Source: a virus. Taken from it: DNA of 64,000 nt. The stretch lies in IMG/VR virus record IMGVR_UViG_3300028048_000003, one strand, 5' to 3'. The notes beneath the pieces were generated by a model. It was not told the DNA's origin. It was given only the letters and a program-made list of their open reading frames with translations, and made no database searches. The position numbers were made by a program, and so were the translations under genes. This document shows positions 21,640-58,930 of the stretch, piece by piece (the stretch's first letter is position 1; each line of letters starts with the position of its first letter).

Positions 21640-21668
21640 ATGATGTAATGCTACCCCGTAACACTCAA

Positions 21669-22810: not shown

Positions 22811-22838
22811 TTGCACGTTATTCGTCGTGGGGTATAAC
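22811..22838 (+). promoter_or_regulatory. rightward early promoter (sigma70-type)
   Basis: TTGCAC (22811-22816), 16-nt spacer, TATAAC (22833-22838), at the AT-rich to GC-rich transition. Confidence 0.45.
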
Positions 22839-22844
22839 AAGGTT

Positions 22845-23450: not shown

Positions 23451-23535
23451 TCATCGTGCCGAGCAGGTGAGAGTCTGCAAGGCGCGCCTAATTTTTGCCA
23501 AGTCAACCTAGATAATGAATAAGGAGGGGCTATCT

Positions 23536-32330: not shown

Positions 32331-32364
32331 AAAAAACACCTACTTTTTTAAGGTAGGTGTTTTT
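32331..32364. terminator. bidirectional intrinsic terminator
   Basis: AAAAA-ACACCTAC-loop-GTAGGTGT-TTTT, between convergent genes. Confidence 0.75.
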
Positions 32365-34889: not shown

Positions 34890-35130
34890 CATATAATCGA
34901 CTATCACTAGCCGTACTGACTATATCATCTACTATTTCTAGCAGCCCTCCGCTTCGGAACAGTACCTATCTCTGTCCCTACATGGTTACACTCATCACCA
35001 TTAGTCGATACACTTTACTGTTTCCAGTCTTAGCACGGACTCATCTCATAAAGACCTATCCGTTAGCACGAAAAATCGCACACCCTCTAGGTGAGGTTCA
35101 AAGGGTTTTACATGGGCTGAGGATTCGCTT
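34890..35130 (-). mobile_element. group I intron (241 nt, no ORF) in nrdD
   Basis: Exon 2 ends in U. The P1 helix pairs exon AUGGGU with intron GCCCAU, including a U-G wobble. The intron ends in G. Splicing restores in-frame ...YIGTMG/CRTAV.... It shares core blocks (GCTAACGG, CCGTGCTAAG) with the other two introns. Confidence 0.75.
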
Positions 35131-35643
35131 ACCCATAGTTCCAATATACTCAAGCGGCATACCGTCATACGCTTTAGAGTCGCAGAACACAAATCGCGGT
35201 TGAATACGCTTACCAACACACTCGATTGCAAGCTGCGTAATGTCAAAGTTCGGCTCACCTTCATGGAGGTTGATTCCATCTTTTACGCGATAACAAAGGT
35301 TCGGAAAGATAGGATTCTCTCCCTTGCCAAGACCAGCAATGTAAGCCTTGAACAAGTTTTTAGAAATCATCCTCGCCCACTTTGATGTATCTGTGCCAAA
35401 GTTTACGCTGGAGAAGGTGACTTGAGCGCCGCTACGTGACCTCATCATATTGCAATTATAAACAAACTGCTCCATCGCCTGATATACGGCTTTATCGGTA
35501 CGTTCAAGAGCAAGTTCTGCCGTTCTTTCTGTATTTACATACCCATCACCATATACCTCCTCGATTTGCTTCTTCTGGTACTCGTACTCACGCTGAACAT
35601 ACGGCGCAAGGTCAGTATCAAAGTTCAAAAATCCCTGCTGACA
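35131..35643 (-). CDS. nrdD: anaerobic ribonucleoside-triphosphate reductase, exon 2
   Basis: 171 codons. It is in frame with exons 1 and 3 once both introns are removed. Confidence 0.8.
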
Positions 35644-36069
35644 CATTCGAGGTTTCCCTCAGTCGTGCCTAGACTATCTCTTCACTCAAGCGGCTGACTC
35701 ACCGCTATCATCGTGCCTTGCACTACGGAATACGGAATTGCACCGTAAACCTCTTAGACTGCGTTAGTCAATTTAGTCGTTACACCTTGCTTGCTCTTTT
35801 TCTCTTTGATTTCACCTGATTTAGCCGCAAAATATCCGTCGTACTTTGTCGGATAAAATTCAATCCCGTTGAATAGCGTTTTATCACCTCCTTTTATTTT
35901 TAGAATAAAGAGCAAGCCTTGGCACGGTATTACCTGCTATCTTACGAAAGACCGTAGGTTCTCTTACGGAGCGTATTCGAGCGCAAGCCTTATTTAACTC
36001 CTACCGTTAGCCATGAAAACATGACACCCTAGATTTCTAGGTTCACAAGGTTACGCGGCCAGTTTATCG
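35644..36069 (-). mobile_element. group I intron (426 nt) in nrdD with a short remnant ORF
   Basis: P1 pairs exon GCGGU with intron GCCGC (U-G wobble), and the intron ends in G. A 16-mer near its 3' end, GTGAAGAGATAGTCTA, is identical to one in the dnaE intron. The junction may be off by a few nt. Confidence 0.7.
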
Positions 36070-36678
36070 ACCGCCGAACATGCTGTTCTGGCTGCTCTGC
36101 AAGATGATACATGCAAGAGCCGTAGCACTTCCAATGCGTTTCGGAGTACGAATACTTCCAACGCCATTTGAGAAGCCATTTTTCAGCATCTTCCCAAGAG
36201 GATTGAAAAAGCAATTAAACGTAATTCCGTAATATCCCAAATCGTGAATATAAACTCTACCTTTTCGGTGATTTTCTGCGTACTTCTTACTCATCCGCGA
36301 CAAATTAAACCGCTTTGTAGCCGCTTCTGCTACGGAATACATCTTACTTGCCGCTGAACCGTTAGCCGCATTAGCATTGTCGGTATTGATTGTAGAGTAC
36401 AGACGCGCAATTTCTTTATTCAAATCGCTGCCATACTCTCGGTAATCTGTGCGTTTCTGCCGATAGAGAATATACGCCTTGGCAACGTCAGGGTATTTCT
36501 CCATCAACTTCTTTTCAACAGCATCGTGAATCTCATCCACGGTTACGTCCCTATCGAACGAGATTTCATTAGCGATTTCCTTGCCAATCTCTGCACTCTT
36601 AGCGGCCTTTGTCACCGCATTTTCAATCTTTTCCTTCTTGAACGGCTCTTTCCGTCCGTCATGCTTCGTTACTGTCAT
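36070..36678 (-). CDS. nrdD: anaerobic ribonucleoside-triphosphate reductase, exon 1 (ATP-cone)
   Basis: Starts MTVTKHDGRKEPFKKEKIENAV (ATP-cone-like) and ends ...SSQNSMFGG. Confidence 0.8.
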
Positions 36679-36844
36679 TTTTCTCCTCCAAAACCTTATA
36701 CATACCTCCTGCTCGATAAGCAACTACTACGTTACCCTCGGCATCCTTAAACAAGTACACATCGCCACAAGCGCACCTAGCGTACCCATTCTCCATATAC
36801 TTATCCCACAGCACATCCCAGCACCTCATGCACTTGACTTTCAT
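36659..36844 (-). CDS. small Cys-containing protein (61 aa)
   Basis: CMRC ... CAC pattern. Coupled to neighbouring genes. Confidence 0.45.
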   Translation of the reverse strand: MKVKCMRCWDVLWDKYMENGYARCACGDVYLFKDAEGNVVVAYRAGGMYKVLEEKNDSNEA

Positions 36845-37503
36845 AATGTAAAATCCTCTGCAAGCTGGCTGAACTTACCGCGGAAATTCTTTGTAAGGGA
36901 AATCGAATTGCCGAGAACTGACAGATATTTACCATACTTCACAAAATCGTTGTTATGATAACCCCTGTTGTCCTTCTGGAAACTGTCTCCGATAAGCACC
37001 ACATGGCAATCATCGTGGCAACGTGTAAAGATGAGCTTCAAGGTTTCATAGTCGCAGTTTTCGGCTTCATCGATAATCACGCCAGCCCTCTCAAAGTTCA
37101 CGCCCCTGAGATTACTGTCTGTGGTCAAATGCAATAGCTTTCCAGCCCTGAGTGCTTGAATCTCATACGGTGTGAATCCCAACGTTTCCATAGCGTCGTA
37201 CACGGGATTGAACAGCGCTTCTGTCTTATCCTCCATAGTCCCAGGTAAAAATCCGTTCTGTAAGAACCTCTGAGAGACCTTCTGGATGTAGATAATCTTG
37301 TTGATTACGTCATTCGCCAAGAGGTCAATCATAGCTGCACAGGAAACAATCGTCTTACCAGTACCAGCCGCAGCTTCGATAAAAGTAAACACATTGTCTG
37401 TGATACTACTGAAAGCATACTTCTGCTCCTGTGTCATACTTGCATAGAACCTATCGCGGTCTTTTCTATTCTTGAGTTCGATATATGGCTTATCGTTCAC
37501 CAT
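36841..37503 (-). CDS. PhoH-like ATPase
   Basis: Walker A AAAGTGKT and Walker B IIDEAEN. The size and motif order are PhoH-like. Confidence 0.75.
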   Translation of the reverse strand: MVNDKPYIELKNRKDRDRFYASMTQEQKYAFSSITDNVFTFIEAAAGTGKTIVSCAAMIDLLANDVINKIIYIQKVSQRFLQNGFLPGTMEDKTEALFNPVYDAMETLGFTPYEIQALRAGKLLHLTTDSNLRGVNFERAGVIIDEAENCDYETLKLIFTRCHDDCHVVLIGDSFQKDNRGYHNNDFVKYGKYLSVLGNSISLTKNFRGKFSQLAEDFTL

Positions 37504-37732
37504 ATTTGCCCTCTACATACTTCTTCGCAAGACCTACAATAGCATTGGCAACCATATCCTTATTCTTCTCTTTTTCAAGTACAGCGCCGACGAGATAGAT
37601 AGCAGCGCGAATCAAAGAGACCTCTCCGTGCATCGCCACATAGTCCTCATCATCTCCGAACATGACCATAGCATAGCCGCTATAACCATGTTTCTTGCAC
37701 TCATCGAGAACCTGACTCTCAAAATCGTCCAT
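37490..37732 (-). CDS. hypothetical protein (80 aa)
   Basis: Coupled ORF. Confidence 0.45.
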   Translation of the reverse strand: MDDFESQVLDECKKHGYSGYAMVMFGDDEDYVAMHGEVSLIRAAIYLVGAVLEKEKNKDMVANAIVGLAKKYVEGKYGER

Positions 37733-37735
37733 TGA

Positions 37736-38191
37736 CTACCTCCAAATCTTCACCAAGATACGTTGTCTACCGAAGCGAAAGGCTTCTTTCTTTGAGTTCA
37801 TGTAGATGTCTATACGGTTTGTATATCCACCACCGAATCTATCTTCAACGGTATAAATATGACCGTTTATTTCAACCTTTGTGCCGAAGGGGACGCCATC
37901 CATAGCGATTGTCCTTCCCGCTGTCGCCCTCCTGCCGCTCGCCGTTATGCCGTCACCCTTGGCGCACTCATCGTCCGAAGAGGTATAAGCACTGACATTG
38001 GCAACCATCTCTCGATAAGCAGGTTCTTCTACCTTCTGAACAGGCTCAACAACAGGCTCTTTTACAGGTGATATGTATGTATCGTGCCAAACTTTATGAG
38101 CCTTTGCCGCATGGTGAGGTTTTAGCAGCAGGAACACAACGAGGACGGCTTTGACCAGACCGAAAAATAGTTTACGACCCAACGACACCAA
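37736..38191 (-). CDS. membrane-anchored 3D-domain cell-wall hydrolase-like protein
   Basis: N-terminal transmembrane helix. C-terminus: TASGRRATAGRTIAMD ... YTVEDRFGGG...RIDIYM, typical of 3D (MltA/YuiC-like) domains. Confidence 0.6.
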   Translation of the reverse strand: MVSLGRKLFFGLVKAVLVVFLLLKPHHAAKAHKVWHDTYISPVKEPVVEPVQKVEEPAYREMVANVSAYTSSDDECAKGDGITASGRRATAGRTIAMDGVPFGTKVEINGHIYTVEDRFGGGYTNRIDIYMNSKKEAFRFGRQRILVKIWR

Positions 38192-38759
38192 ACTCCTCTG
38201 CCCACGGAAGAGTGCTGATGAACTTGCAGAACTCCCTCCACTCTGGCAGTCTGTGATTGTGCCGCTGATACCAAATAGTTTTCAACTGGGCGTAGTTTGT
38301 GACGATGCCAGCACCAAGGCAGATACCCTCGGGCATATTTGACTTCACTGCGAGGAGATTCTCTTCGGACGGGTGCTCTATATACTCCTCAACAATGTCC
38401 TCAAAAATACCAAGGATAGTGGGATGTACATACTTGTTCGCCATCTTTTTATAGTCCAGAGATTTTACCTTGTGCATCGAGGACATACTGTTTTTGGTGA
38501 ACCAATGATAGGTATCGTGCTGCTGCCACCAGTACCGAGGAGCGATAATGTCATAAGCCACCGTAATTTGTCTGAGAAACTTATCATCCCCATGACCATA
38601 CGGCGAATTGCCCAGCTTGTCACCTCGCTTAATCAGCTTGACCTTATCTACGTCTACATCGTTCATATCCTTAATTTCTGTGGACATAGGGTAGCCAGCG
38701 CGGATAAGAGCTTCTTGAATCCCCCATACATCCACATTAAGAATCTTTATGTGCTCCAT
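38172..38759 (-). CDS. ThyX-like (Thy1-fold) protein lacking the RHR signature
   Basis: GHGDDKFLRQITVAYDI and NYAQLKTIWYQRHNHRLPEWREF line up with the ThyX N- and C-terminal blocks. Where RHR-x7-S is expected the sequence reads DTYHWFTKNSMSS. Confidence 0.45.
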   Translation of the reverse strand: MEHIKILNVDVWGIQEALIRAGYPMSTEIKDMNDVDVDKVKLIKRGDKLGNSPYGHGDDKFLRQITVAYDIIAPRYWWQQHDTYHWFTKNSMSSMHKVKSLDYKKMANKYVHPTILGIFEDIVEEYIEHPSEENLLAVKSNMPEGICLGAGIVTNYAQLKTIWYQRHNHRLPEWREFCKFISTLPWAEEFGVVGS

Positions 38760-39048
38760 GTTTACCCCCTCGAATTGCAATCAGGTATCTAGCCTTGCCA
38801 ATCGCCGCATCGTCGGCTTTATAGACAAGATTCATACCCGTAGAATAATCAAAATCGCAGAACATATCGAAGAGAGGAGCTTCTTTGCTTTCTTCTGGGT
38901 AATTCCTCTGCAATTCCACCAGTTGTTTAGCTCGTTTTGTCCAGTCCGCATCCGAGATGATATTTTCATTGAATTTGTAGTAAACAACCGAATGGACAAG
39001 CGTTTGAAGCCGTCTTCTTTTGATAAGCTCTACGATTTGTTTATTCAT
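38737..39048 (-). CDS. hypothetical protein (103 aa)
   Basis: Coupled between dut and the ThyX-like gene. Confidence 0.45.
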   Translation of the reverse strand: MNKQIVELIKRRRLQTLVHSVVYYKFNENIISDADWTKRAKQLVELQRNYPEESKEAPLFDMFCDFDYSTGMNLVYKADDAAIGKARYLIAIRGGKHGAHKDS

Positions 39049-39726
39049 TTATTCTCCCGTACTCCCAATACCACCATCACGCGAATCAGCAGGAGCATCA
39101 TCACTGACAAGGAACTTCTGGAAGATACCCTGTGCAATCTTGTCTCCCTTATGAACAACCTGCGGTGTATCGCCGTAGTTATACAGGAAAAGCATGATAT
39201 GCCCCTCGTTTGAAGAGTTGTTGTAGTAGTCAGAATCAATAATTCCGACCGTATTGGGGAGGATAAGGTGCTTCTTTACCCCCATCGAAGAACGAGGATA
39301 GATTTTCAATACCTCATCGGAGAGCATATACGCTTTTACGCCAGAAGGAATACATTTTTGCTCACCGCTGCCGATAACACAATCAACAGGGGAATAGAAA
39401 TCGTACCCTGCCGAGAAAACTGTGCTACGCTTTGGGAGAATGATGTCCTCTTGGTTGAGGTTTGTCTTTTTCACCTTCTCGAAACCGCGCTCTGGTTTTT
39501 CCAGCACATCGCAGAAAGAATTGCAAATCCCCTCAATTGCGCTCATCCGAAGCCCCTTCATAATTTTGGCTTCTTCCCTTGTCACATCGTTCTCTTCACA
39601 GAACTTATCGAAGCGTTCCTTTTCTCTCCGTACTGCTTCAACCAAAATCTGTGCTGCATTACCCTTGTTCATCTGCGCTTTCCTTTCTTGTTCTGTGTTT
39701 TCCAATCCATCAGCTTCTTCTGCCAC
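39049..39726 (-). CDS. dut: dUTPase with an N-terminal extension of about 85 aa
   Basis: Motifs AGYD, PRSS, GIIDSDY and RDGGIGSTGE are in trimeric-dUTPase order in the C-terminal 140 aa. Confidence 0.85.
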   Translation of the reverse strand: MAEEADGLENTEQERKAQMNKGNAAQILVEAVRREKERFDKFCEENDVTREEAKIMKGLRMSAIEGICNSFCDVLEKPERGFEKVKKTNLNQEDIILPKRSTVFSAGYDFYSPVDCVIGSGEQKCIPSGVKAYMLSDEVLKIYPRSSMGVKKHLILPNTVGIIDSDYYNNSSNEGHIMLFLYNYGDTPQVVHKGDKIAQGIFQKFLVSDDAPADSRDGGIGSTGE

Positions 39727-39890
39727 GGCTCAAGCTCTTCATAAGGAGGAAGGCCGCCGATACAATGCTTTAGAATACCCTTTTCGAGATTCTCATCGAC
39801 GATTTTTTCCATTTTTTCCTTGTACTCGTCAGCGTTTTTGCGTGTGGAATCATAGTAAATCCATGTTCCGTGATACTTGTACTTGTCCAA
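39669..39890 (-). CDS. hypothetical protein (73 aa, TTG start proposed)
   Basis: GGGGAGG lies 9 nt upstream of a TTG at 39890. The longer ORF-track version (to 40043) has no ribosome-binding site. Confidence 0.35.
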   Translation of the reverse strand: MDKYKYHGTWIYYDSTRKNADEYKEKMEKIVDENLEKGILKHCIGGLPPYEELEPWQKKLMDWKTQNKKGKRR

Positions 39891-40229
39891 ATATTCTGTC
39901 CTCCCCGATAAGTAAAATTTTAATACCCCAGACTGCACAGGTATCTGTCTCCAATTACGCAGGAGAGTTTGAACGGTCGATACATCCCGAACATCACGCC
40001 GTAGGTCTATCCTAGGAATACAATACAACACATGTCTAGGCAATCTCTCACCGCCGAATCGAGGGACTTATATGGGAGCGCCCGACATATCGCCTGTGTC
40101 ATATCGGAGTTTTAACGTCTTGTCTTTGACAGCTTAATTTAGAATGTTATTTATATACCTGTTTTACGGCTTATCTCTCGGCATGACCGTACCTCGTTAC
40201 TTTCTCGCACTTGCGCTACATCTGGATAA

Positions 40230-40320
40230 TGGTGCGAGAGACGGGATTCGAACCCGTATGATATTTCTATCGAGGGTTTTTAAGACCCTTGCGCCTACCA
40301 CATGATTACGCCACTCTCGC
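40230..40320 (-). tRNA. tRNA-Leu (anticodon UAA), type II with a long variable arm, CCA encoded
   Basis: Acceptor stem GCGAGAG/CTCTCGC. Anticodon stem AGGGT/ACCCT with loop CTTAAAA. T-arm ACGGG-TTCGAAT-CCCGT. Confidence 0.9.
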
Positions 40321-40663
40321 ATAATAATTGGTTTTTTCGTCTTTTCCTTGACGACCTAGCTTTTCAGATGTGTTTTAGTGCTGGCCAGTCACTTCAAGCA
40401 TAGTCCCATTCACATCAGGGGCTTTAGGATTCGGTGCGGCGCTCCTGCCACCTTTCAGACAGGTCGCAATCCGCAGAGATGGTTCCAACATTTTTTAAGC
40501 GCATTTTCCATTCGGCGCTGCTGTTTTACCCACCTACCAGCAAGGGAAGCCTGAGCGTCGTGAATCGCGGCCTTGTCAGCCAAAACCAGTATGCTCCTAA
40601 AACATCAGGGACATCTGGAGTTCACGGTGGCTCACGCAAAAAAACTCGACCAATCATTCATAA
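40321..40663 (-). ncRNA. 343-nt ORF-free structured spacer inside the tRNA operon (candidate ncRNA)
   Basis: It is co-transcribed between tRNA-Thr and tRNA-Leu and is GC-rich. A 9-mer, ACATCAGGG, is repeated at 40412 and 40602, each next to one arm of the complementary pair TTTAGGA/TCCTAAA. Several local hairpins are present. Confidence 0.35.
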
Positions 40664-40739
40664 TGGAGCTACCGAGAGGAATCGAACCTCCAACCTACGC
40701 ATTACAAGTGCGTTGCTCTACCAGTTGAGCTACGATAGC
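40664..40739 (-). tRNA. tRNA-Thr (anticodon UGU)
   Basis: Cloverleaf read by hand. Anticodon stem ACGCA/TGCGT with loop CTTGTAA. T-loop GGAGG-TTCGATT-CCTCT. CCA encoded. Confidence 0.9.
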
Positions 40740-40898
40740 ATGATAATGTACCCAGATGTCAAAAGAATCTTTTTTAGTTGGAAAGGAGGTATTCTTACTG
40801 GGTACATCTTTATAAAATCACCCTTTTTTATAAATTGCTCAGGTCAACCTTTATAAAATATCGCTTTTTTATAAAAACAGGTGATTAAATAAACATAT

Positions 40899-40973
40899 TG
40901 GCAGGGGTTACTGGACTCGAACCAGTGATGCGGGAGTCAAAGTCCCGTGCCTTAACCACTTGGCAAAACCCCT
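40899..40973 (-). tRNA. tRNA-Gln (anticodon UUG)
   Basis: Acceptor stem AGGGGTT/AACCCCT. Anticodon stem CGGGA/TCCCG with loop CTTTGAC. T-arm ACTGG-TTCGAGT-CCAGT. CCA encoded. Confidence 0.85.
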
Positions 40974-40975
40974 AT

Positions 40976-41051
<76 letters not shown>

Positions 41052-41130
41052 ATGATATATGGTTTTAGCGAGTTTTCCTTCTCGATTTGAGGTTTTCTTC
41101 TCTTCCGAAGTTCTCCTCACTACGGTTTAT

Positions 41131-41159
41131 ATCATATCACTTTTTAGGTCTGTTGTAAA
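41131..41159 (-). promoter_or_regulatory. sigma70-type promoter of the tRNA operon
   Basis: On the minus strand: TTTACA (41159-41154), 17-nt spacer, TATGAT (41136-41131). About 75 nt upstream of tRNA-Lys. Confidence 0.55.
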
Positions 41160-41188
41160 CAAAAAATTTATTTATATAACGTAATTTT

Positions 41189-41767
41189 TCATTTACTCAA
41201 CTCATTGAAGAAAGACGGCTGGAGTGCAAACATGAAGTCCTTATATGACTCATCGAGGGAAACCATGTCAGCGTAGTCCTGTTCAAAGAACTTGTGCAGC
41301 TCCCCGTAGTTGCGGTCAGAGACTTCTCGAATAGCATACTTCTCGCCGCTCTCGCTCTCAATCACGTTACCGTTCACGGCCTTGGAGTGCTTTACCAAAT
41401 CATAGAAGATATTCTCATCCATGACATAGCAGAACCCTGTGATATAAAGTATCTTCTTCTCTCCGATTAGCCGACGAATCCGCTCAAAAGACTGCCGCTT
41501 CTTGTTCTCTACCTTACGTTCTACACCGAAGATGGTCACGCGCAAGTCAGAATCAGCGCCCTCACGAATCTTCTTATATGCGCCAGAACCGTCAATGATA
41601 CGAGCTTCAAATCCCTGTCTCTGGAAATGCAGGAGCAACTTCTTTTCAGACTTCTTCCCTCGCCGCTTGTTGGAACGTCCGATAGCCTGTCTCGATTTGC
41701 TCTTCTTACGCTCAAACTTGTTGTACTCTTTACACTTACGACACATACCGCGAGTCTCACTAGACAA
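41189..41767 (-). CDS. putative Holliday-junction resolvase-like PD-(D/E)XK nuclease
   Basis: The N-terminus has CRKC and a basic stretch. The core then shows G..E....L...GF......GSGA....DL.V......VE.K spacing, reminiscent of Hjc-type resolvases. Confidence 0.35.
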   Translation of the reverse strand: MSSETRGMCRKCKEYNKFERKKSKSRQAIGRSNKRRGKKSEKKLLLHFQRQGFEARIIDGSGAYKKIREGADSDLRVTIFGVERKVENKKRQSFERIRRLIGEKKILYITGFCYVMDENIFYDLVKHSKAVNGNVIESESGEKYAIREVSDRNYGELHKFFEQDYADMVSLDESYKDFMFALQPSFFNELSK

Positions 41768-41778
41768 GCAGTACGGCT

Positions 41779-41988
41779 TTACAACACACTCAGAAATGGT
41801 GCATCCTCCTCCTCTACATCGTCAATCACAATGTTTGCGAACATATCCTCATCTGTATAGTCCTCTGGGTAGTCAATCATCATCTGTGCTGCTTCTTTTT
41901 TTGATGTAGCGCGGACAATAGAGCTATCATCCGTATGCCACCTCACACGGTACGTCTTAGTCTCCAAAATGGATGTACCTCTTTGCAA
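41779..41988 (-). CDS. hypothetical acidic protein (69 aa)
   Basis: ORF track, compact spacing. Confidence 0.45.
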   Translation of the reverse strand: MQRGTSILETKTYRVRWHTDDSSIVRATSKKEAAQMMIDYPEDYTDEDMFANIVIDDVEEEDAPFLSVL

Positions 41989-42096
41989 TCTTCTCGATTA
42001 GCGACAAAAAACCGCTCATTACTACCCAACCAAGTGCCAGACCAGCACTGAGCATAACTCCATCTACAAACAACATTCCTATCACTTTCCTTTCTA

Positions 42097-42444
42097 TCAT
42101 TCCAATCTATCAGGCACAGGCTCTCCCCAGAAATCATGCCGCGCAATATCACAAAACATATCGGCAATACCAAGTTCATTGATACCGAAAGAGATAGCCA
42201 GAGCCTTATCGCCTTTTACCGTATCGCGAATTTCCTTCAATATTTCAAGATACTCCATTATTACCTTCGCTTTCATATTGCAAATAAAAGGAGAACGACG
42301 GAGAGCAAGCTCTGCTGCGTAAAGAGCATTGTTTTCCTCATCCGAAAAGATGAACTTCATATCTTCTTTCTCTTCTTTTAGGCGCATCTTCTCGATGATT
42401 TTAATAGCTTTCTTTCTCTTCATATCAATCACCAATTTCATCAC
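42097..42444 (-). CDS. hypothetical protein (115 aa)
   Basis: ORF track, coupled to its neighbour. Confidence 0.5.
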   Translation of the reverse strand: MMKLVIDMKRKKAIKIIEKMRLKEEKEDMKFIFSDEENNALYAAELALRRSPFICNMKAKVIMEYLEILKEIRDTVKGDKALAISFGINELGIADMFCDIARHDFWGEPVPDRLE

Positions 42445-42826
42445 GCAGCTCTAGCTCTTCATCGCTATATTTACACCACATATAGTTGCAATAATCGGCT
42501 TCATTGACGTACTTGTTGAAGTCACGCCAAGTCATATCAACTAACCTATCATACACTTTCCTTTCCTTGAAATAATACTTTTGAAGCAAGCGATATTTCG
42601 CCAGTTTCTTCCCTTTTTCGAGGTCAAACTTATCGTCTGGATGGCACTTCGCAACACCGACCAGCCCACCTTTTGTAAGCTCATCGGCATACTTTCCTAT
42701 CCTGTCCTTCACTTGAACAGAGAGGTGTTTTTCTTCAAAGATACCATTTACGATTTGATAGCCGTCTGGTTCATCTCCAGAAAACCGAGCGTAGACTTCG
42801 TTTCCCTTGCGCGTATACTCAATCAT
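42425..42826 (-). CDS. hypothetical protein (133 aa)
   Basis: ORF track, coupled. Confidence 0.5.
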   Translation of the reverse strand: MIEYTRKGNEVYARFSGDEPDGYQIVNGIFEEKHLSVQVKDRIGKYADELTKGGLVGVAKCHPDDKFDLEKGKKLAKYRLLQKYYFKERKVYDRLVDMTWRDFNKYVNEADYCNYMWCKYSDEELELRDEIGD

Positions 42827-51570: not shown

Positions 51571-52347
51571 TTACTTGGAAAGACGTTTTGCGAGACGAGC
51601 AGCGAGAGCAGGGTTAGTCTTAGAGAGGTTGCGCATAAAGTCAGAATCGATAGCTTTCTTCGCAGAGACAATGGGCTTCACATCAACAGCATAGACAACG
51701 GCACGGTTTCTGGCAGGTTTCCCAATATCATTCTTAGCTTTCTTGCCGAGCTGCCAGTTGTTTTTGAGAGCGGCGAAGAAGTAGGCAATAGGATTCTTAA
51801 CAGAGAGGGAGCTGTTGAGCAAGGCGAGCTTCTCTTCAACGTAGTTCACGCCAAGCTCTTTCATCTCCTCGAAGGAGCACGGCTTATTACCAGCCAGCTT
51901 GCGTCCGTATTCCAGAACTTTCGTGGCGTAGAGGACGGGGGAGATACCGAGGGCAGCAGCTTTCTGTCCAACGGCGGCATGGTGGCTAGTCTCAGTCTCC
52001 TTCTCAACATCGTTATTATTTGTTTTAACTATTCTAGTTTGTTCTTTGCGATTCGTAGCCATAGGGCATGTCACGGGCTTATCGAGGATTCTGACGTAGC
52101 GTGCCAAGACCATTTTAGGGATTTTTGGGGAGTACATGAGCTTGACTGCGACCAGACCAGCGCGGCGAAGGTCGGTAATGATATGGCTGACGCGAGACAT
52201 AGACTTACCCATCATCTCAGCGAGGCTACGATTATTCGCCCAGCATGAGCCTGTTTTGGCAGAAAGATATTCAATCCTCTCGAACAGCAACACATGCGTG
52301 GATGTCATTTTGATGCCGTTGACTACATCGTTCGGTTTGAACTTCAT
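51571..52347 (-). CDS. replication initiator-like winged-helix protein
   Basis: Winged-helix HTH segment NNRSLAEMMGKSMSRVSHIITDLRRAGLV. It diverges from the DnaA-box region. Confidence 0.45.
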   Translation of the reverse strand: MKFKPNDVVNGIKMTSTHVLLFERIEYLSAKTGSCWANNRSLAEMMGKSMSRVSHIITDLRRAGLVAVKLMYSPKIPKMVLARYVRILDKPVTCPMATNRKEQTRIVKTNNNDVEKETETSHHAAVGQKAAALGISPVLYATKVLEYGRKLAGNKPCSFEEMKELGVNYVEEKLALLNSSLSVKNPIAYFFAALKNNWQLGKKAKNDIGKPARNRAVVYAVDVKPIVSAKKAIDSDFMRNLSKTNPALAARLAKRLSK

Positions 52348-52419
52348 GTTGTACCTCCGTTTTTAATAAAAAAATAAGCGCCCAACACACCTTTTTGGTG
52401 CATCAGACGCTTTTGTTTC

Positions 52420-52448
52420 TTGCCTGTGCAGTTTGACTATGATATAAT
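52420..52448 (+). promoter_or_regulatory. sigma70-type promoter of the candidate sRNA
   Basis: TTGCCT (52420-52425), 17-nt spacer, TATAAT (52443-52448). Confidence 0.55.
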
Positions 52449-52454
52449 AGTCGT

Positions 52455-52572
52455 AGAAGTTGATGAAACGGTGTATATATCTGTGTTCCATCGACTCGCT
52501 CTACTGGGGTGTGTAAAGAAGACCAGTAAAGCCGCTTCTAAGTGACGCCAATCACTTGGGAGCATTTTTTTT
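52455..52572 (+). ncRNA. candidate small RNA of about 118 nt (promoter plus intrinsic terminator)
   Basis: The terminator has a 12-bp stem (52534-52545 pairing with 52552-52563) followed by 8 T. An internal hairpin pairs GTTGATG with CATCGAC. The only ORF is a weak 17-codon one. Confidence 0.5.
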
Positions 52573-52590
52573 GTTCAGTTTTCAAAGGAA

Positions 52591-52611
52591 TGTGGATAAC
52601 GCTGTGGATAA
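52591..52611. promoter_or_regulatory. two tandem perfect DnaA boxes (candidate origin)
   Basis: TGTGGATAA at 52591-52599 and 52603-52611, which is the reverse complement of TTATCCACA. Confidence 0.6.
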
Positions 52612-52742
52612 CTCATGTTTCACAGATTGCTACCTACGTCTTATATGATAACTCGCCAGCCCTTATGTAGTCAACGCTTAAAAGCAAATATTTACATAAA
52701 AGGTTCGGTATGTTACTGAGTATTACTCGATGATATTTTTTC

Positions 52743-52771
52743 TTGACGTATCGCTTATAGTGTTATACAAT
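52743..52771 (+). promoter_or_regulatory. parM promoter
   Basis: TTGACG, 17-nt spacer, TACAAT. Flanked by GATGAT(A)TTTTTTCTT direct repeats at about 52722 and 52781. Confidence 0.55.
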
Positions 52772-52814
52772 GTGAGCGTAGATGATTTTTTCTTATCGAG
52801 AAGGAGGATTTACC

Positions 52815-53726
52815 ATGATTTCTATCGACGTAGGATTCGGTAACACTAAGGTGTATGACGGCGAAACCTTAAACGTGTTCCCCTCTATCTATTACCGCGC
52901 CAAGGCAGCCGAAGCCGTGAACGACCCAAGAGATATGCTCCTTGAGCTGGATGGTGAGAAGTATCATGTTGGCATCACGGCTCTGAACAAAGGTGGAGAG
53001 TCACAGATGGAGCGTCACAACCTCCTCCGTCACAAGCTCTTCATTCTCTCTGCGATTTGTGCTACGACGAGAGGCGATTTCTCCGATAAGGTTCTTCTTG
53101 GTCTTCCGATTAGCGACATGGAGACGATGAAGGAATCTGTTGAGGGATTGAAAGGCACATACCACGTTATTTTCAACGGAGAGCCGAGAGAAATCAACAT
53201 CACGACCATTAAGGTATATCCTCAGTCAGAAGCCGTATACAACCTCCTAGAGCGTCAGGACGAGAATATCAGAGACAAGGCAATCGGTATCATCGATGTG
53301 GGACAGAAAACGGTTGACCTCGCCTACTACAACTACGGGACGCTTGATGATGATAGGTGCGGGAGTCTAACAAAACTCGGTTGCAAATCGGCGTATCTTG
53401 ACATCCAGAAGGCGCTTAACCGTGTCTGCGACATCGATACTGAGTGGTATCTGGTATCTAAGTTCTTGAACCGCGAAGCAATAGAAGAAGATAAGAACCG
53501 TGCGTTTGAGGACATGGCGCGTAAGATTCTGAGCGCAACCAGTAACCTTGGATGGAATTACCATGAACTCGATGCAGTGTACCTTATCGGAGGCGGTAGT
53601 TCTTATATCGAACCATTCGTAAAGGAGCATGTAAAGGTTCTTACTGGAGAGAGCGACAAGGTTATTATTCCATCTAACCCAGTATTCGCGAATGTGAGGA
53701 GTTACTACGAGGGGGAATTGAAATGA
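52815..53726 (+). CDS. parM: ParM/StbA-type actin-like segregation ATPase
   Basis: Actin-fold phosphate motifs in order: ISIDVGFGNTK, IIDVGQKTVD and YLIGGGS. Confidence 0.75.
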   Translation: MISIDVGFGNTKVYDGETLNVFPSIYYRAKAAEAVNDPRDMLLELDGEKYHVGITALNKGGESQMERHNLLRHKLFILSAICATTRGDFSDKVLLGLPISDMETMKESVEGLKGTYHVIFNGEPREINITTIKVYPQSEAVYNLLERQDENIRDKAIGIIDVGQKTVDLAYYNYGTLDDDRCGSLTKLGCKSAYLDIQKALNRVCDIDTEWYLVSKFLNREAIEEDKNRAFEDMARKILSATSNLGWNYHELDAVYLIGGGSSYIEPFVKEHVKVLTGESDKVIIPSNPVFANVRSYYEGELK

Positions 53727-54139
53727 GTAAGAGAGTTTCAGTAGTATTCCCTGGGCTTATCGGGGACTATGTAGAAAAACGTATGAACCAGCTTGGACTC
53801 ACTCCTAGCCAGTTCCTTCATATCATGGTTATCAGGGATTTAATCAGACCATTGACCATCGAAGAAGCTGGCATCCTGAGTATCGGCGTAGGCCGTATGA
53901 AGTCAGGTGGTAGTGCGGAACAGGTTATCGCTGGACTTGCCCCGCTATTCGAGAGAGAAGGTTACTCCAAAAAGCAGGAAGAGGAAGAGCCTTTAGGAGA
54001 CGAGGACGTAAAGAAGGTGGTTAGCGACATTCTTGCCGAGCCAATCCCAGAACCGTCAAAGGCAGAAGAAAAGCCAAAACAGACCGTAGAGAAACACCAA
54101 GACGAGCCTAAAATGGGGAATATGACAGGCTACATCTGA
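53723..54139 (+). CDS. ParR-like adaptor (RHH-type N-terminus, acidic tail)
   Basis: Overlaps the parM stop. The N-terminus MSKRVSVVFPGLIGDYVEKRMNQLG is RHH-like. Assignment rests on its position downstream of parM. Confidence 0.45.
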   Translation: MSKRVSVVFPGLIGDYVEKRMNQLGLTPSQFLHIMVIRDLIRPLTIEEAGILSIGVGRMKSGGSAEQVIAGLAPLFEREGYSKKQEEEEPLGDEDVKKVVSDILAEPIPEPSKAEEKPKQTVEKHQDEPKMGNMTGYI

Positions 54140-54156
54140 AAATAGGCAAAAAAATA

Positions 54157-54185
54157 AGGGGACTGCGAAAGCAGCCCTCTTTTTA
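54157..54185. terminator. bidirectional intrinsic terminator
   Basis: GGGGaCTGC-gaaa-GCAGCCCt with A-rich and T-rich flanks, between convergent genes. Confidence 0.7.
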
Positions 54186-54632
54186 TGTGAGTTTGTTTTT
54201 TCTCTTCGTCGGATATAAAGCGAATACGGCTTTTTCGAGGTCAGATGCAAGGTTTTTCTCCTCTGCTTCTTTTTCTAGCCGTAATTTTTCCTCGATTTGT
54301 TTCTTCTTATAAGCGGCGTAACCTCTTACTAAATAGTCGCTGCCCTCTCTTGTGTGAATCCATTTTTCTACTTCGGCAGGGAGTGACACAAGTTGTTCCG
54401 AAACACTAGCTTCTCCCAGCAGCATATCGACAGGGATATTCATGCCCTCTGCGGCTTTGATAATGTTTTTAAGATAGACACGGCTACCCTTCATCGCTTG
54501 CAGGTATTGTGGTTTCCAGCCAATGCTACGACAAAACTCGGCGGCAGAGATTTTATGCTGCTTAGTATATCTCTTAATAGTCTCAAACAGATAATCTCCG
54601 CTAATGTGTGTTGATTTACTATGCTTTATCAT
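54183..54632 (-). CDS. XRE-family HTH repressor-like protein
   Basis: N-terminal HTH (KISAAEFCRSIGWKPQYLQAMKG) with a coiled-coil C-terminus. Confidence 0.6.
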   Translation of the reverse strand: MIKHSKSTHISGDYLFETIKRYTKQHKISAAEFCRSIGWKPQYLQAMKGSRVYLKNIIKAAEGMNIPVDMLLGEASVSEQLVSLPAEVEKWIHTREGSDYLVRGYAAYKKKQIEEKLRLEKEAEEKNLASDLEKAVFALYPTKRKNKLT

Positions 54633-54862
54633 CTAAACACACTCCTTGCCAAAAAATAATACAACGTTCAATCGCATGTTATCCATACATATAATATTTA
54701 CTTTGTCCTAGTATGAAAAGCAACGAAATTTATTTGTCGCAATATGATAATATGCTTTTATTTCATAACCAGTCAGATAACATCGTAGAACGTCACAAGA
54801 CTCTATCTACATTATATTGAATAGTAAGAGAATCCGCAAGACCTAAATACTGCTAGTTAATA

Positions 54863-56722
54863 TTAAATAATACTCCTAAATTTGTTGCCAACAACAGACA
54901 TCCGATAGATTTTGTTCGTATCGATTGGTACATAAACACTATTAAACATTACCATATCATGCTGAGTTCCATCGGGGCATTCCAGAGTGAAGAACATCAT
55001 AGGCTTACCGTTTTTCTGTTTCCAATGTTTGATACGACGCACAACGCCAAGGACGATGCGGACGTTATTATCCTGCTCATCGGGGACTTGGTATTTACTT
55101 GTATCATAGTCAGCGAAGATATTCTCAAAGGTCATGCCGAGCACTTCAAGCTCCCCTGCTCTGTTGTCAAAGTCGGTGTCTGTGGCTTCAACCTCTTTGA
55201 TTTTCTGCTCAATATCCCAATACTTAGAGCTGTAATCAAGGTATTTCTTATGAGCATCAGACTTTTTCTTCGTTCCGTCCTTCGCCGTCTCGTAGATAGC
55301 CTTATTCTTCTCGATTCGTTCCTTGGTCGTTTCCAGTTGCTTGTTGAGCTTATCGAGGACACCGCTCTGATAAAGAACCTGTAAAAGCTCGCTCCTATCT
55401 CCTAAGAAGTCCAGCGCACCAGCCTTGATAAGATTCTCCACTTTGTCCTTCGGAAGTTTCTTGTAGCTCTGATAGTCAAGGGGAACAGGAATATCGCCGA
55501 TACCAGAAATGTAGTTGATAGCCATTCTGATAGCCTTTTTGCCGTCATCTTTGACAACCACTTGCCAATCACATGTAGTAGAACGCGCATCGGGAGGAAG
55601 AATCTCTACGCCATGCCTACGAGCGTCGTTGATATACACCAGCAAATCCTCCTGCTTGTCTCCGTTGTACGCATTGAGATAGGCGCAAAGGAACTCAGCA
55701 GGATAGTGTGCCTTGAGATATGCCGTCTGATAGCATGTGTAACCGTATGCGGCGCTGTGCGACTTATTGAACTGATACGCGGCAGCGTTAGAGAGCCATT
55801 CTGCTAGTTTTTGAGCGACCTCAGAGCTTACACCACGCTTCTCACAATCACTCACAAACTGAGGAACAAGTTTAGCCATCTCCTCTGGAATCTTTCTACC
55901 GATAGCACGACGGAACACATCTGCCTGTCCTAAATCATATCCTGCCATAGCCTGTACAATCTGCATCGCCTGTTCCTGATAGAGCATGACACCATAAGTA
56001 TCTTTCAAGCAAGTCTCTACCCAAGGATGGATATAAGTAAACGGCTTTCCCTTTCTCCGATTAGTAAACTCATCAACCATACCACTCTGAATAGTGCTAG
56101 GACGATACAACGCCACCAGCGGCACAATATCGAACACACTTTGAGGTTTAATATCTTGAATGATTTTTCTCATACCACCAGATTCAATCTGAAAGCATCC
56201 GAGAACATCGTCATGGTTCAGCATATCGAAGGTAGCTTCATCCGTATCAGGAAGGTTGTCTACGTCCACAGACGCGCCGTAGCGTGCCTCTACCATCTTA
56301 CAGGTATTATCTATCACGTCGAGGGTTTTGATGCCCAGAACGTCCTCTTTGAGCAGCCCCATAGCTTCGAGGTCGTGATACTCATAGGCACACACATAAT
56401 CATCGCCCTGTTTTTCGATAGCGCACCACTCCGTAGGCTCACTAGGGAACAACATGACAGCACTTGCATGACATCCATAGTTCTGAATGACACCAACATA
56501 CTTTAACGCGAGGTCTTTCAATCGTCCATCCGTCTGCTCCTCGATAGTTTTAGGGAGATTGCGAATCGCAGAAGGTTCATAACCAAGACTTCTAGCCGCT
56601 CTCTGAATCGCTGCTCTCTCACCCATAAGACCAAAGGTGCGAACGTGATATACTTCGTGATACTTATCTACAAGATACTGGATAGCATCACCGCGCCTAC
56701 TATTGGGAACATCCGTGTCAAT
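54863..56722 (-). CDS. dnaE: DNA polymerase III alpha subunit, exon 2
   Basis: Starts IDTDVPNS (equivalent to PDIDIDF). Also contains QIESGGMR, LYQEQAMQI and FNKSHSAAYGY blocks and an OB-fold C-terminus. Confidence 0.85.
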   Translation of the reverse strand: MDTDVPNSRRGDAIQYLVDKYHEVYHVRTFGLMGERAAIQRAARSLGYEPSAIRNLPKTIEEQTDGRLKDLALKYVGVIQNYGCHASAVMLFPSEPTEWCAIEKQGDDYVCAYEYHDLEAMGLLKEDVLGIKTLDVIDNTCKMVEARYGASVDVDNLPDTDEATFDMLNHDDVLGCFQIESGGMRKIIQDIKPQSVFDIVPLVALYRPSTIQSGMVDEFTNRRKGKPFTYIHPWVETCLKDTYGVMLYQEQAMQIVQAMAGYDLGQADVFRRAIGRKIPEEMAKLVPQFVSDCEKRGVSSEVAQKLAEWLSNAAAYQFNKSHSAAYGYTCYQTAYLKAHYPAEFLCAYLNAYNGDKQEDLLVYINDARRHGVEILPPDARSTTCDWQVVVKDDGKKAIRMAINYISGIGDIPVPLDYQSYKKLPKDKVENLIKAGALDFLGDRSELLQVLYQSGVLDKLNKQLETTKERIEKNKAIYETAKDGTKKKSDAHKKYLDYSSKYWDIEQKIKEVEATDTDFDNRAGELEVLGMTFENIFADYDTSKYQVPDEQDNNVRIVLGVVRRIKHWKQKNGKPMMFFTLECPDGTQHDMVMFNSVYVPIDTNKIYRMSVVGNKFRSII

Positions 56723-57709
56723 CATTACTACCCCATGTCACCATAGGGATTAGACTATCTCTTCACCATGCCTTACGGTTTAGGTGTCTCGCACTTCGAG
56801 GTGTAGCAAAATCACCCCTACGCTCCTTTGAGCTAGTCGTTACACTTTATTATCTCACAATCATTACTCTTATGATACTTATTTATTCCACTAAAAGAAG
56901 CCCCAAGTTGCTCGGCTGCGTACTTTGACGCGGCATATATCGACTTGAAGCTCTTAATGAATTTGCCGTTTTTATATAGTTTACACTTAACAAAATTTCT
57001 GACAAACCCCAAAGATGAATTTTTAAGATTTCCCCTTCGGTCTGTCCACCTCAAATTAGAAGCATTATTGTTCAATACGTTGCGGTCTATGTGGTCTACT
57101 TCTGGTAGGTTTTTGGGATTAGGAATGAATGTTTTTGCTACCAATCTATGTACAGAATAGTGTTTACTTCTCTCCTTGCCATGTGTCATACTTACATATA
57201 GGTATGGAGAAGTTCTACTACTTCTTGGAATTAAAAAAGTGCAAGTTCTGTAAGATAGTATCTTCCCAGTTTTATTGATAGCATAGTTTTCTTCAAACCC
57301 CTTAACAGGAACAAACCCATCAGGAAGTAACTCTGGAAAATTAAGCCATATAGCTTTGTTTATGTTATACGTTTTAGAGTTATCTTTATCGTGTAAAATG
57401 ACTCTATATAGCTTACCTTTACCTCGTGGCGGTGCTATTTTTATAGGCCGCATTGTCTCTTTTCTATATATTTTTCCGCTTCTTGATATTAAGTATTTGT
57501 TTTCAAACCCCTTAAACGGACGTAGTTTTTCCATACAACCACTCCTCTCAGAGCGATTGCGAGATAATCTTAGCACGGTATTGTCTATACCCTCCGATGT
57601 ACAAGGATATAGAGTTCCACCGTTAGCCCTTATAAAAGGACACCCGCTTGCAATAACGGTTCACGAGAATTAACACCGCCTGTTTCCAGACGGCTCGACA
57701 TTAATGTTT
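56723..57709 (-). mobile_element. group I intron (987 nt) carrying an HNH homing endonuclease
   Basis: P1 pairs exon CAGAU with intron GUCUG (U-G wobble), and the intron ends in G. Splicing gives ...ERFAHDKRSSSAD/IDTDV..., the same length as the canonical ERFLNPERVSMPD/IDIDF. It shares core blocks with the nrdD introns. Confidence 0.75.
56833..57534 (-). CDS. HNH homing endonuclease (two NUMOD4-like repeats plus an HNH_3-like motif)
   Basis: FKGFENKYLISRSGKIY and VKGFEENYAINKTGKIL, followed by EVDHIDRNVLNNNASNLRW. ATG after GAGAGGAG. Confidence 0.8.
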   Translation of the reverse strand: MEKLRPFKGFENKYLISRSGKIYRKETMRPIKIAPPRGKGKLYRVILHDKDNSKTYNINKAIWLNFPELLPDGFVPVKGFEENYAINKTGKILSYRTCTFLIPRSSRTSPYLYVSMTHGKERSKHYSVHRLVAKTFIPNPKNLPEVDHIDRNVLNNNASNLRWTDRRGNLKNSSLGFVRNFVKCKLYKNGKFIKSFKSIYAASKYAAEQLGASFSGINKYHKSNDCEIIKCND

Positions 57710-58930
57710 ATCTGCTGAAGAAGAGCGTTTGTCGTGTGCAAATCTCTCGAAGATAAGCCCGTACTTGATAGGGTCAATGCGTGTAATGTCCATGAGGTAA
57801 GCAACAAGACAGCCGCCGACACTACCGCGACCAATACCTGTCCTGATACCGAGATTATGGCAGCCGCGAACAAAGTCCTCTGTCATAAGCATGTAGTTTG
57901 TATAGTCAATCTTATCGAGAACCTTGATTTCATGGTCAATCTGAGCCTTGTACTTGGGATATTCTGACTCAGGAACATGACCTACAACCTTCTTTTTGAA
58001 GCCATCCGCAACCAGCTTGCACATTTGAGAGAGTGGCGTTTCGCCTTTCGGAACTTCAAAGACAGGGTAATGCTTCTCACCGAAGGGAATCTCCACCTGT
58101 TCACACTTAGAAGCTACGCGCTCAGTCTCCTCGATTAGCTCATTCACGATAGTATTATCAAGATAACTCAGGCTGTTTCTCACTTGCTGTTCGGAGTGGA
58201 TATAATAATCGTCCGTTTGGTAATAGTCGCTGTCTTCACCAATCCCCAACCATTTCCTATGCGTGTCCGCTTCGTCTTTGTTGACATAGTGGGAATCCTC
58301 GGTAACGTAAGCTGAAATGCCTAAGTCTGTGGCAAGGTCAATCATATTCTTATTGTATTCCTTTTGTCTATCATCCGTGGCGCATTGTACCTCTACATAG
58401 AAGTCCTCTCCAAAAGCGTTCTGAAAGGTCTTGGCACGGTCATAAGCAAGGTCATAGTCCCATTCATCACCGTTTCGAGGATTGAGAATACCACCCATGC
58501 AGGCAGAAGAAACAATCAGCCCTTCTTTGTGAGCGATAATGTCCTCAGTTGTAAGTCTCATAGTGTAGAAGAAATTATCAGGTTTGTTCCCTTTGTCACC
58601 ATACCCAATCGTTGCTAATCGGAGAAGATTATGATAGCCTGTTTCGTTCTTAGCTAAAAGGATAATGTGACAGCTCTCTTTGCGGTCTTTGATGTAGTAG
58701 TTAGGAATCCAGTAACCCTCCATGCCAAAGATAAACTTGATAGAGGTGTTATGCTCCTTATTGTACTTCTTTGTTTCCTTGTATGCCTCCATCAATCCGC
58801 TCGTTGTACCGTGGTCTGTCAGCGCCCAAGCGTTCTGTTGAAGCTCTCCGATTCGAGAAACCATATCAGGAATCTTTGCGATGGCATCTCTCTTTGAATA
58901 ATGACTGTGCCTATGTAACCCTACGAACAT
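57710..58930 (-). CDS. dnaE: DNA polymerase III alpha subunit, exon 1 (PHP domain)
   Basis: Starts MFVGLHRHSHYS (PHP). 407 codons, ending ...GLIFERFAHDKRSSSAD. Confidence 0.85.

Follow-up and report, generated by a model that had tools for sequence, protein, structure and literature searches.

How does the phage of IMG/VR record IMGVR_UViG_3300028048_000003 persist in its host, as a plasmid or by integration? The question is raised by a locus of about 3 kb (51571-54632) in the 64,000-nucleotide stretch of this record that was analysed, hereafter called the window. A first-pass annotation, made from the letters alone, had described an initiator-like gene, a candidate small RNA (sRNA), two DnaA boxes, a parM/parR pair with centromere-like repeats and an XRE repressor side by side, and had proposed a phage-plasmid (for the concept, PMC7969092) maintained outside the chromosome. 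All of these features were confirmed, at or close to the positions given for them. Our analysis suggests that this phage of rumen Selenomonadaceae is probably a phage-plasmid kept as a low-copy circular plasmid, with the plasmid state read across from a relative. Persistence as a plasmid rather than by integration is most likely because the closest sequenced relative is a circular plasmid and because the locus carries genes for segregation and replication control.

The relative in question is pSRC4 (NC_017069.1). Its record belongs to the finished genome of Selenomonas ruminantium subsp. lactilytica TAM6421, is filed as a plasmid and describes a circular replicon of 72,893 bp, annotated as a plasmid with phage genes. 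The entire window is collinear (circularly) with pSRC4, and the products of genes for packaging, head, tail, replication and lysis are 28 to 83% identical in amino acid sequence; the terminase is 83% and the initiator 36% identical to its counterpart. Both share the local gene order helicase, Rad52, initiator, parM, parR, regulator and DNA polymerase III (PolIII) alpha. As a result of this collinearity, a close relative of the phage is on record as an autonomous replicon in pure culture.

Other relatives point in the same direction. Ten IMG/VR relatives of 66-73 kb lack host flanks and have parM at differing offsets, and one relative assembles as a circle, judged by a 55-nt terminal overlap. 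An identical recombinase is indexed in 31 collection blocks, and in eight of the eight contigs shown the same phage genes are found on both sides of it. No close relatives were found in 185,579 species-representative genomes, where the only ParM relatives, from Desulfobacterales and other groups, were 21-28% identical and are informative solely as a negative. The collinear relative L077 (68.4 kb) encodes, between Rad52 and parM (8340-9810), a Rep_3 initiator (Rep3_N 6.5e-11, Rep3_C 1e-9) together with at least six iterons (ATATGTGGAG[C/G]AAATGTTGT) and four DnaA-box-like sites. This slot of L077 is a predicted classical theta plasmid origin, and comparison of its Rep_3 gene with the winged helix-turn-helix (wHTH) initiator of the window indicates a cassette-like exchange of the replicon, with the neighbouring parMR conserved. 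The proposal of extrachromosomal maintenance over integration is thus supported, most strongly by the synteny with pSRC4 and further by the lack of host flanks and the recombinase contexts; for the plasmid state itself it leans on the relative.

The actin-like nature of ParM is well supported. Pfam matches were obtained to ALP_N (3e-19), MreB-like_C (5e-8) and the ParM C-terminal domain (3e-5), and PHROG 691, a 'partition protein' family, matched at 3e-50. The motifs DVGFGNTK, GLP, IDVGQKTVD and IGGGS (phosphate-1, connect, phosphate-2 and adenosine, respectively) are invariant in 14 relatives. The nearest solved structures are Cbc-/CBg-ParM from Clostridium botulinum, and the best match in the plasmid collection is the ParM/StbA of pSRC4 (47% identity). 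The NCBIfam ParM equivalog scored 21 bits against a cut-off of 417. The first-pass annotation was right about the ATPase and its motifs. The start needs one correction: it is not 52782 but the ATG at 52815 behind the ribosome-binding site (RBS) GAAGGAGG, and the public gene call likewise encodes 303 amino acids; the second of two GATGAT repeats is therefore located in the 5' untranslated region, outside the coding sequence.

The parR-like gene overlaps the parM stop codon by 4 nt (ATGA), as had been noticed, and the arrangement indicates that its translation is coupled to that of parM. The gene has almost no sequence relatives, yet positional homologues with the same beta-alpha-alpha pattern are found in all clades. 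A profile built from the N-termini of these homologues in four clades matched CopG (E=6e-5), followed by AvtR and NikA, all of which are ribbon-helix-helix (RHH) proteins, in line with the RHH assignment made earlier. The C-terminal tail is conserved within clades. An RHH domain, then a low-complexity stretch rich in acidic residues, then a short tail at the C-terminus is the layout expected of a ParR adaptor, as known from the ParR proteins of R1 and pSK41. An AlphaFold (AF2) monomer model of the parR-like protein had a mean predicted local distance difference test (pLDDT) of 51, and was not used for a fold search.

Two repeats of 14-16 nt, GATGATATTTTTTCTT (52729-52744) and GATGATTTTTTCTT (52781-52794), bracket the parM promoter and are unique in the window; the second differs at one more base in relatives. 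Just upstream of them, GTTACTGAGTATTACTC is another candidate site; it is also unique in the window, and is unchanged in six variants while its flanks vary. Short repeats occur at the equivalent place upstream of parM in other members of the family: CATCA arrays in L070 and L074, two copies of GGGAACC in pSRC4, and GATTA/TTAAT in L077. Such clade-specific repeats fit co-evolving ParR-centromere pairs, without proving them. A contig from a wastewater variant replaces 52696-54109 as one block, so that parM, parR and the promoter/centromere region probably move as a unit. Taken together, parM and the parR-like gene are, as far as sequence can tell, a type II (ParM/ParR) partition operon, and filament formation is predicted.

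The initiator-like protein was assigned by a combination of profile and structure searches. The Pfam family HTH_36 matched the protein of the window below the cut-off (E=1.2e-4), and matched 19 out of 27 members of its family, with 4e-14 as the best. An AF2 model built from 27 homologues (pLDDT 86) consists of a wHTH domain, a linker and a helical C-domain. A Foldseek search of the PDB gave no strong match; the top hit was DnaD (E 3e-3, across both domains), followed by the RepA_N-type plasmid initiators 4pql, 4pt7 and 5kbj at about 2-4e-2. Among predicted viral models, the neighbours in structure that carry a name are a replisome organizer and the replication proteins O and C, and PHROG replication-initiation families matched at E 6e-7 to 3e-5. 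The family is small, with 100 representative clusters among 1.84 billion proteins. No Pfam, NCBIfam or PDB match to RepC/RepR was obtained for this wHTH/DnaD-like protein, and no Rep_3 Pfam match was found in the window.

The control region between the initiator gene and parM (52348-52814) contains three promoters and two terminators, all of which are sequence predictions. The sRNA candidate that had been proposed from a promoter and a terminator is retained. Its terminator has a 12-bp stem followed by U8, up to 52572, and its fold of -39.4 kcal/mol (z = -3.6) contains three stem-loops (SL). An Rfam search returned only tRNAs in the window, with zero matches in the control region, including the sRNA, and in six relatives. 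The whole sRNA is complementary to the leader of the initiator gene and contained within the predicted leftward transcript, which crosses the DnaA boxes, then the sRNA complement and then a leader hairpin on its way to the initiator RBS. This hairpin is located directly 5' of the RBS (52353-52358) and the ATG (52347). As no promoter-like site scoring at least 9/12 is found between the hairpin and the start codon, the initiator must be expressed by read-through.

In six clade variants the stems and terminator of the sRNA are invariant, whereas 62-81% of the loop columns vary, compared with 11% of the parM columns, and three of the six carry an extra 39-nt hairpin in the sRNA. Promoter hexamers are kept while spacers are rewritten, in L069 for the sRNA promoter and in L011 (7 spacer positions) and L069 for the leftward promoter. 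Changes on the stem side are U-G to U-A (SL1 in L010, the leader hairpin in L069), and SL1 of L069 also shifts a mismatch within an extended stem. Ahead of its initiator open reading frame (ORF), pSRC4 has a 17-bp hairpin and a U-run, a structural equivalent without sequence similarity. In the L070 clade, a leftward promoter, DnaA boxes, an sRNA complement and a terminator are found at the equivalent place. In L070 (8740-9560) and in L071-L076 the initiator gene is absent, and about 1.2 kb without ORFs takes its place. A non-coding core of ~480 nt is nearly invariant in this clade while the flanking sequence diverges; it matched no Rfam family, and with z = -0.3 and -1.25 a folding signal was absent.

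The two perfect DnaA boxes, correctly placed in the divergent intergenic region by the first-pass annotation, are the only ones in the window, where 0.53 would be expected. They are invariant in close relatives, and perfect pairs are also found upstream of parM in the L070-76 clade and in L077. In wastewater variants one 12-nt box unit (52591-52602) is deleted. The boxes are situated inside the predicted transcribed leader, and the GC content of 52600-52800 is 0.33-0.38, compared with 0.447 for the window; a 13-mer-type DNA unwinding element was not identified there. A scan of JGI metagenomes for the DnaA-box pair gave no match, and in IMG/VR a 22-mer containing the pair also matches unrelated phages.

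The convergent gene downstream of parR encodes an XRE-family regulator, as had been noticed, and is a candidate repressor. Its profile matched the XRE-type HTH proteins HipB, SinR, C.BclI and 434 Cro (best E=2e-5), PHROG 8 matched at 4e-6, and a promoter scan found promoter-like sites in its upstream region. The gene is swapped as a cassette in wastewater variants, in which separate contigs put unrelated sequence at 54183-54861. Since the parC-parM-parR block and the XRE gene are replaced in separate contigs, the module is mosaic at cassette boundaries.

The tyrosine recombinase is embedded among small early genes. It matches Pfam Phage_integrase at 1.9e-19 and NCBIfam XerA (2e-25), XerC (2e-19) and XerD (4e-18), in all three cases below the curated cut-offs. 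No second recombinase was found among the precomputed Pfam matches of the called genes in the source-contig parts L003, L013 and L015, which agrees with the earlier view of a sole, Xer-like recombinase. This census covered window ~37500-42800 only via homology to pSRC4 genes, and included the recombinase neighbourhood in relatives. Apart from the terminator at 32332-32364, the flanks of the gene hold no lox/dif-like inverted repeat, and a site may lie elsewhere. A role as resolvase is consistent with the data, and we see the case for it as evenly balanced.

Based on these observations we propose that 51571-54632 is the lysogenic-maintenance island of a tailed phage of ~74 kb, made up of three units. 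The leftward promoter (52674-52645) would drive a leader across the DnaA boxes into the initiator gene. Pairing of the ~118-nt countertranscript with this leader, together with the hairpin before the RBS, would set the supply of initiator and hence the copy number. Host DnaA on the two boxes may help to open the origin or may gate the leader. In the partition unit, ParR is expected to bind the repeats around the parM promoter through its RHH domain, so that they would serve as centromere and autoregulated operator, and to capture actin-like ParM filaments, which would push sister copies apart. The XRE repressor, with its own promoter and terminator, would keep lytic genes off, and the Xer-like recombinase could resolve plasmid multimers. 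The positions of all features are given in Table 1.

Table 1. Positions of the maintenance-locus features and of other genes mentioned in the text (window coordinates)
Feature	Position	Strand	Details
Initiator-like protein	51571-52347	-	258 aa; winged helix at the N-terminus, linker (aa 99-118) disordered, helical C-domain
Leader terminator-like hairpin and U-run	52366-52412	-	terminator scan; 16 pairs (52376-52412), U-run 52366-52375; candidate attenuator
sRNA promoter	52420-52448	+	promoter scan; TTGCCT-17-TATAAT, extended -10 TG
Candidate countertranscript sRNA	52455-52572	+	~118 nt; SL1 52458-52496, SL2 52498-52532, terminator 52534-52563 + U8
Two perfect DnaA boxes	52591-52599, 52603-52611	+	TGTGGATAA (reverse complement of TTATCCACA); starts 12 bp apart
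Leftward promoter	52645-52674	-	TTGACT-18-TATCAT; would drive leader/initiator transcript
Invariant GTTACTGAGTATTACTC	52712-52728		two TTACT copies spaced 10 bp apart; core palindromic; may be a site for ParR or a regulator
parM promoter	52743-52771	+	TTGACG-17-TACAAT; within 52729-52794, bracketed by two GATGA(TA)TTTTTTCTT repeats; candidate parC/operator
parM, actin-like segregation ATPase	52815-53726	+	303 aa
parR-like adaptor	53723-54139	+	138 aa; N-terminal RHH, acidic low-complexity linker, short C-terminal tail
Bidirectional terminator, parR / convergent XRE gene	54160-54177		terminator scan; T-run on both strands
XRE-family HTH regulator	54183-54632	-	149 aa; own AT-rich promoter region 54645-54776; candidate prophage repressor
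Small Xer-like tyrosine recombinase	31026-31907	+	293 aa; candidate multimer resolvase; integrase role possible
NrdD, anaerobic ribonucleotide reductase	33927-36723	-	three ORFs: 219, 182 and 326 aa
tRNA genes (n=4)	40230-41051	-	Leu-TAA, Thr-TGT, Gln-TTG, Lys-TTT
PolIII alpha, split	54863-58930	-	409-aa PHP part 57701-58930; 620-aa finger part 54863-56725

Several observations weigh against plasmid maintenance, or against particular parts of the proposed mechanism. The metagenomic source contig, which on the earlier suggestion might close as a separate circle, carries no host gene and remains open, because its ends are situated in or beside two paralogous tail-fibre genes outside the window (L013:26863-28146 and L015:886-3303), the 5' ends of which are 85-88% identical across about 530 nt. 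Virions or lytic replication would yield circular or host-free contigs just as well. A literature search on pSRC4, TAM6421 and Selenomonas phage-plasmids gave nothing relevant, and no characterisation of pSRC4. While the winged helix of the initiator stands, its supposed plasmid type does not: by sequence comparison and modelling the protein is of the phage DnaD/replisome-organizer kind and belongs to no recognised plasmid Rep family, and no iterons were found in or beside its gene. The parC comparison is likewise upheld in part, with the repeats placed as described and the array thin, as only two copies and no larger array were found. The control region of pSRC4 has no DnaA boxes, and the phage has an extensive set of replication genes of lytic type, namely PolIII alpha, primase-helicase and NrdDG, with 4 tRNAs. 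The element could be an integrative temperate phage, in which ParM/ParR, like AlpC/AlpA of the prophage CGP3, move or organise excised, replicating DNA upon induction instead of segregating a plasmid prophage, and of which pSRC4 and the host-free contigs would be excised or replicating forms. It does encode a tyrosine recombinase, metagenome assemblies favour the more abundant replicating form, and actin-like phage proteins do not guarantee a plasmid lifestyle, for which CGP3 AlpC/AlpA has been cited (PMC8026635). We nevertheless consider integration quite unlikely: in the finished genome of an isolate, pSRC4 stands as a circular replicon of its own, the recombinase is small, Xer-like, located among early genes and never beside host genes in the 8 contexts inspected, no close relative is found inside the species-representative genomes scanned, and L077 has its classical plasmid Rep_3/iteron origin beside parMR. 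A virulent or carrier-state (pseudolysogenic) phage, with the region acting as a lytic replication module that includes a DNA-positioning cytoskeleton and an XRE early-gene regulator, would account for the lytic replication genes that flank it, with Rad52 and primase-helicase to one side and PolIII alpha to the other, for the replisome-organizer type of the initiator and for the phage's own polymerase, ribonucleotide reductase (RNR) and tRNAs; in addition, there is no cultured relative of described lifestyle. This is very unlikely, as pSRC4 was kept in pure culture through genome finishing, the Rep_3/iteron/DnaA-box cassette of L077 is a theta plasmid origin, and an XRE regulator, a recombinase, an autoregulated-looking parMR and countertranscript control are hallmarks of maintenance, not of burst.

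Within the phage-plasmid reading, the role of the antisense pair is less certain. Attenuation of initiator expression is something we infer rather than a result, because the minimum free energy and centroid folds of the leader form the terminator even without the sRNA, and because the unit of sRNA, promoter, DnaA boxes and terminator persists in the L070-76 clade without a downstream initiator gene. As antiterminator or preemptor pairing was not identified in the folds either, the model is also incomplete. The depth of RNA-labelled wastewater runs mirrors that of DNA runs, for which reason these are uninformative on expression. We hold attenuation specifically as a tentative mechanism, somewhat short of an even chance. 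Instead, the sRNA and the overlapping leftward RNA of ~270 nt could be an RNA-centred origin or primer unit resembling RNAII/RNAI of ColE1, or another antisense pair, acting independently of the initiator. Such a unit would explain its retention in the L070-76 clade without a following initiator ORF, and the leftward RNA has its own strong terminator and a similar length in both clades. In the window and in pSRC4, on the other hand, the hairpin lies directly before the initiator RBS with no promoter in between, which is the geometry of an attenuator, so that an initiator-independent RNA unit has a limited though real chance. The version in which the antisense pair is a type I toxin-antitoxin system was rejected, since no small ORF is conserved across the variants. 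It is also conceivable, though unlikely, that the leftward promoter, the DnaA boxes, the terminated leader RNA and the countertranscript form the real plasmid origin and copy control of the family, with interchangeable initiators. These would be a wHTH/DnaD-like protein for the window and pSRC4 and Rep_3 for L077, whereas L070-76 would do without a protein. If so, this would be an RNA-centred, cassette-swapping replicon in which loop variation sets incompatibility types among co-circulating rumen phage-plasmids.

The source contig, k141_283853, is a 73,822-bp MEGAHIT assembly from a bovine gut metagenome. Its two tail-fibre paralogues may be alternative host-range determinants. The phage gene complement includes TerL, a portal, an SU10-type capsid protein, a tube protein, a 2958-aa tape measure, tail proteins and a GH25 lysin. 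The closest TerL from a cultured phage is only 38-39% identical, and a nucleotide search of GenBank phages gave no match to the window. Window and contig are offset by 8236 at the left and by 8387 at the right; 151 nt of the public contig are thus absent from the window, within ~19900-42800. Between the small-terminase side and the early genes, window 20860-23515 (~2.6 kb) has no convincing ORF and no Rfam match. At the matching map position pSRC4 has an unannotated 2.7-kb gap (7423-10113) without nucleotide similarity, and the stretch in the window may act in cis, for instance in packaging, or may encode an RNA. The PolIII alpha gene is interrupted in the window by a NUMOD4/HNH endonuclease gene (56833-57576), and is unbroken in L010, L011 and pSRC4 (1026 to about 1050 aa). 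In wastewater variants, joints within PolIII alpha skip 718 or about 1000 nt, and the endonuclease insertion is therefore a mobile homing element. In relatives NrdD is intact (687 aa), carries a LAGLIDADG intein (1044 aa) or is divided into parts of 204 and 492 aa, and its gene is a repeated target of selfish elements. The Selenomonas strain that carries pSRC4 has a second circular phage-like plasmid, pSRC3 (NC_017073.1, 73.4 kb), with a TerL 38% identical to that of the window, an integrase among early genes, a DnaB-like helicase, an RNR and a pair of HTH and ImmA genes. Judged by these genes, pSRC3 is probably another phage-plasmid.

Phage-plasmids are increasingly recognised as vehicles that unite infection with plasmid-like persistence. 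To our knowledge, almost all described groups belong to Enterobacteria, Bacilli, Clostridia, Borrelia and Mycobacteria. The window element and roughly 15 relatives make up a family of ~66-74 kb in rumen and gut Selenomonadaceae (Negativicutes), the sole cultured representative of which is filed as an uncharacterised plasmid. A plasmid-prophage lifestyle based on ParM, an RHH adaptor and a Xer recombinase is already known; we found no description of it for this phage family or for rumen Selenomonadaceae. The more unusual aspect, not surprising in principle, is that entire replicon cassettes are exchanged at one slot, alongside a loop-hypervariable countertranscript. From strain to strain the copy-control RNA differs in its loops and by one hairpin insertion, and strains also swap entire cassettes. 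With three replication solutions at one slot beside a conserved parMR, the family is a natural experiment in replicon-cassette exchange, and the locus offers a compact, clonable replication-plus-partition cassette for anaerobes with few genetic tools.

How the locus compares with known systems can be judged at several levels. Its nearest counterpart, pSRC4, is alike in genome size and circular gene order. In both, an RHH-type gene follows parM, a small tyrosine recombinase is encoded among the early genes, and a terminator-like hairpin precedes the initiator. It differs in a control region without nucleotide-level similarity or DnaA boxes, in its own repeats at the parM promoter, in ParR and regulator sequences that are unrelated beyond the fold pattern, and in uninterrupted PolIII alpha and NrdD genes. 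The plasmid prophages of the Bacillus cereus group (IEBH, vB_BtS_B83 and pBtic235-like) are temperate phages of siphovirus type that exist as circular plasmids. They encode a ParM-like ATPase with a small RHH adaptor and a Xer-family recombinase and have a putative centromere; PolIII alpha, primase and helicases are present in some of them (PMC8026635). They share with the window the combination of ParM, RHH adaptor and Xer-family recombinase, whereas their hosts are Bacilli rather than Negativicutes and no control region with a countertranscript and DnaA boxes has been reported for them. Our searches gave no significant sequence relation between their ParM proteins and that of the window. The prophage CGP3 of Corynebacterium glutamicum also encodes an actin-like protein with an adaptor, AlpC and AlpA, but resides in the chromosome, where its actin comes into play once the prophage is excised; for the phage of the window, we found no integration junctions and no chromosomal copies.

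The order promoter/centromere, parM, parR and the actin-fold ATPase are as in parMRC of R1 and pSK41, and ParR resembles theirs in its RHH N-terminus, flexible region and C-terminal tail. In the window too, repeats flank the promoter core, an arrangement that implies autoregulation; parC has 10 iterons in R1, and pSK41 has 8. The window differs in having only two clear repeats; the ParM identity is low, and the nearest solved ParMs are clostridial.

Antisense-driven attenuation controls replication in pT181, pIP501 and pAMbeta1 (PMC2879508). As in these plasmids, the rep leader of the window contains a cis-antisense RNA gene with stem-loops and variable loops, and a rho-independent terminator separates the antisense target from the rep start; in our case both the RNA gene and the terminator are predictions. 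The initiator of the window is, however, unrelated to RepC/RepR, no preemptor pairing was found, and the leader contains DnaA boxes. In the absence of RepC/RepR homology, the comparison is one of working alike, not of membership.

The phage-plasmid P1 has an origin region with DnaA boxes, an active partition operon, a tyrosine recombinase and a dedicated repressor, each with a counterpart or candidate counterpart in the window. In P1 the recombinase Cre serves multimer resolution. P1 differs in its iteron-binding RepA and in a type Ia ParAB/parS system in place of ParMR, and there is no sequence relationship between the two. By this comparison, the locus would work like a P1-style maintenance island, but with type II partition and, probably, antisense control.

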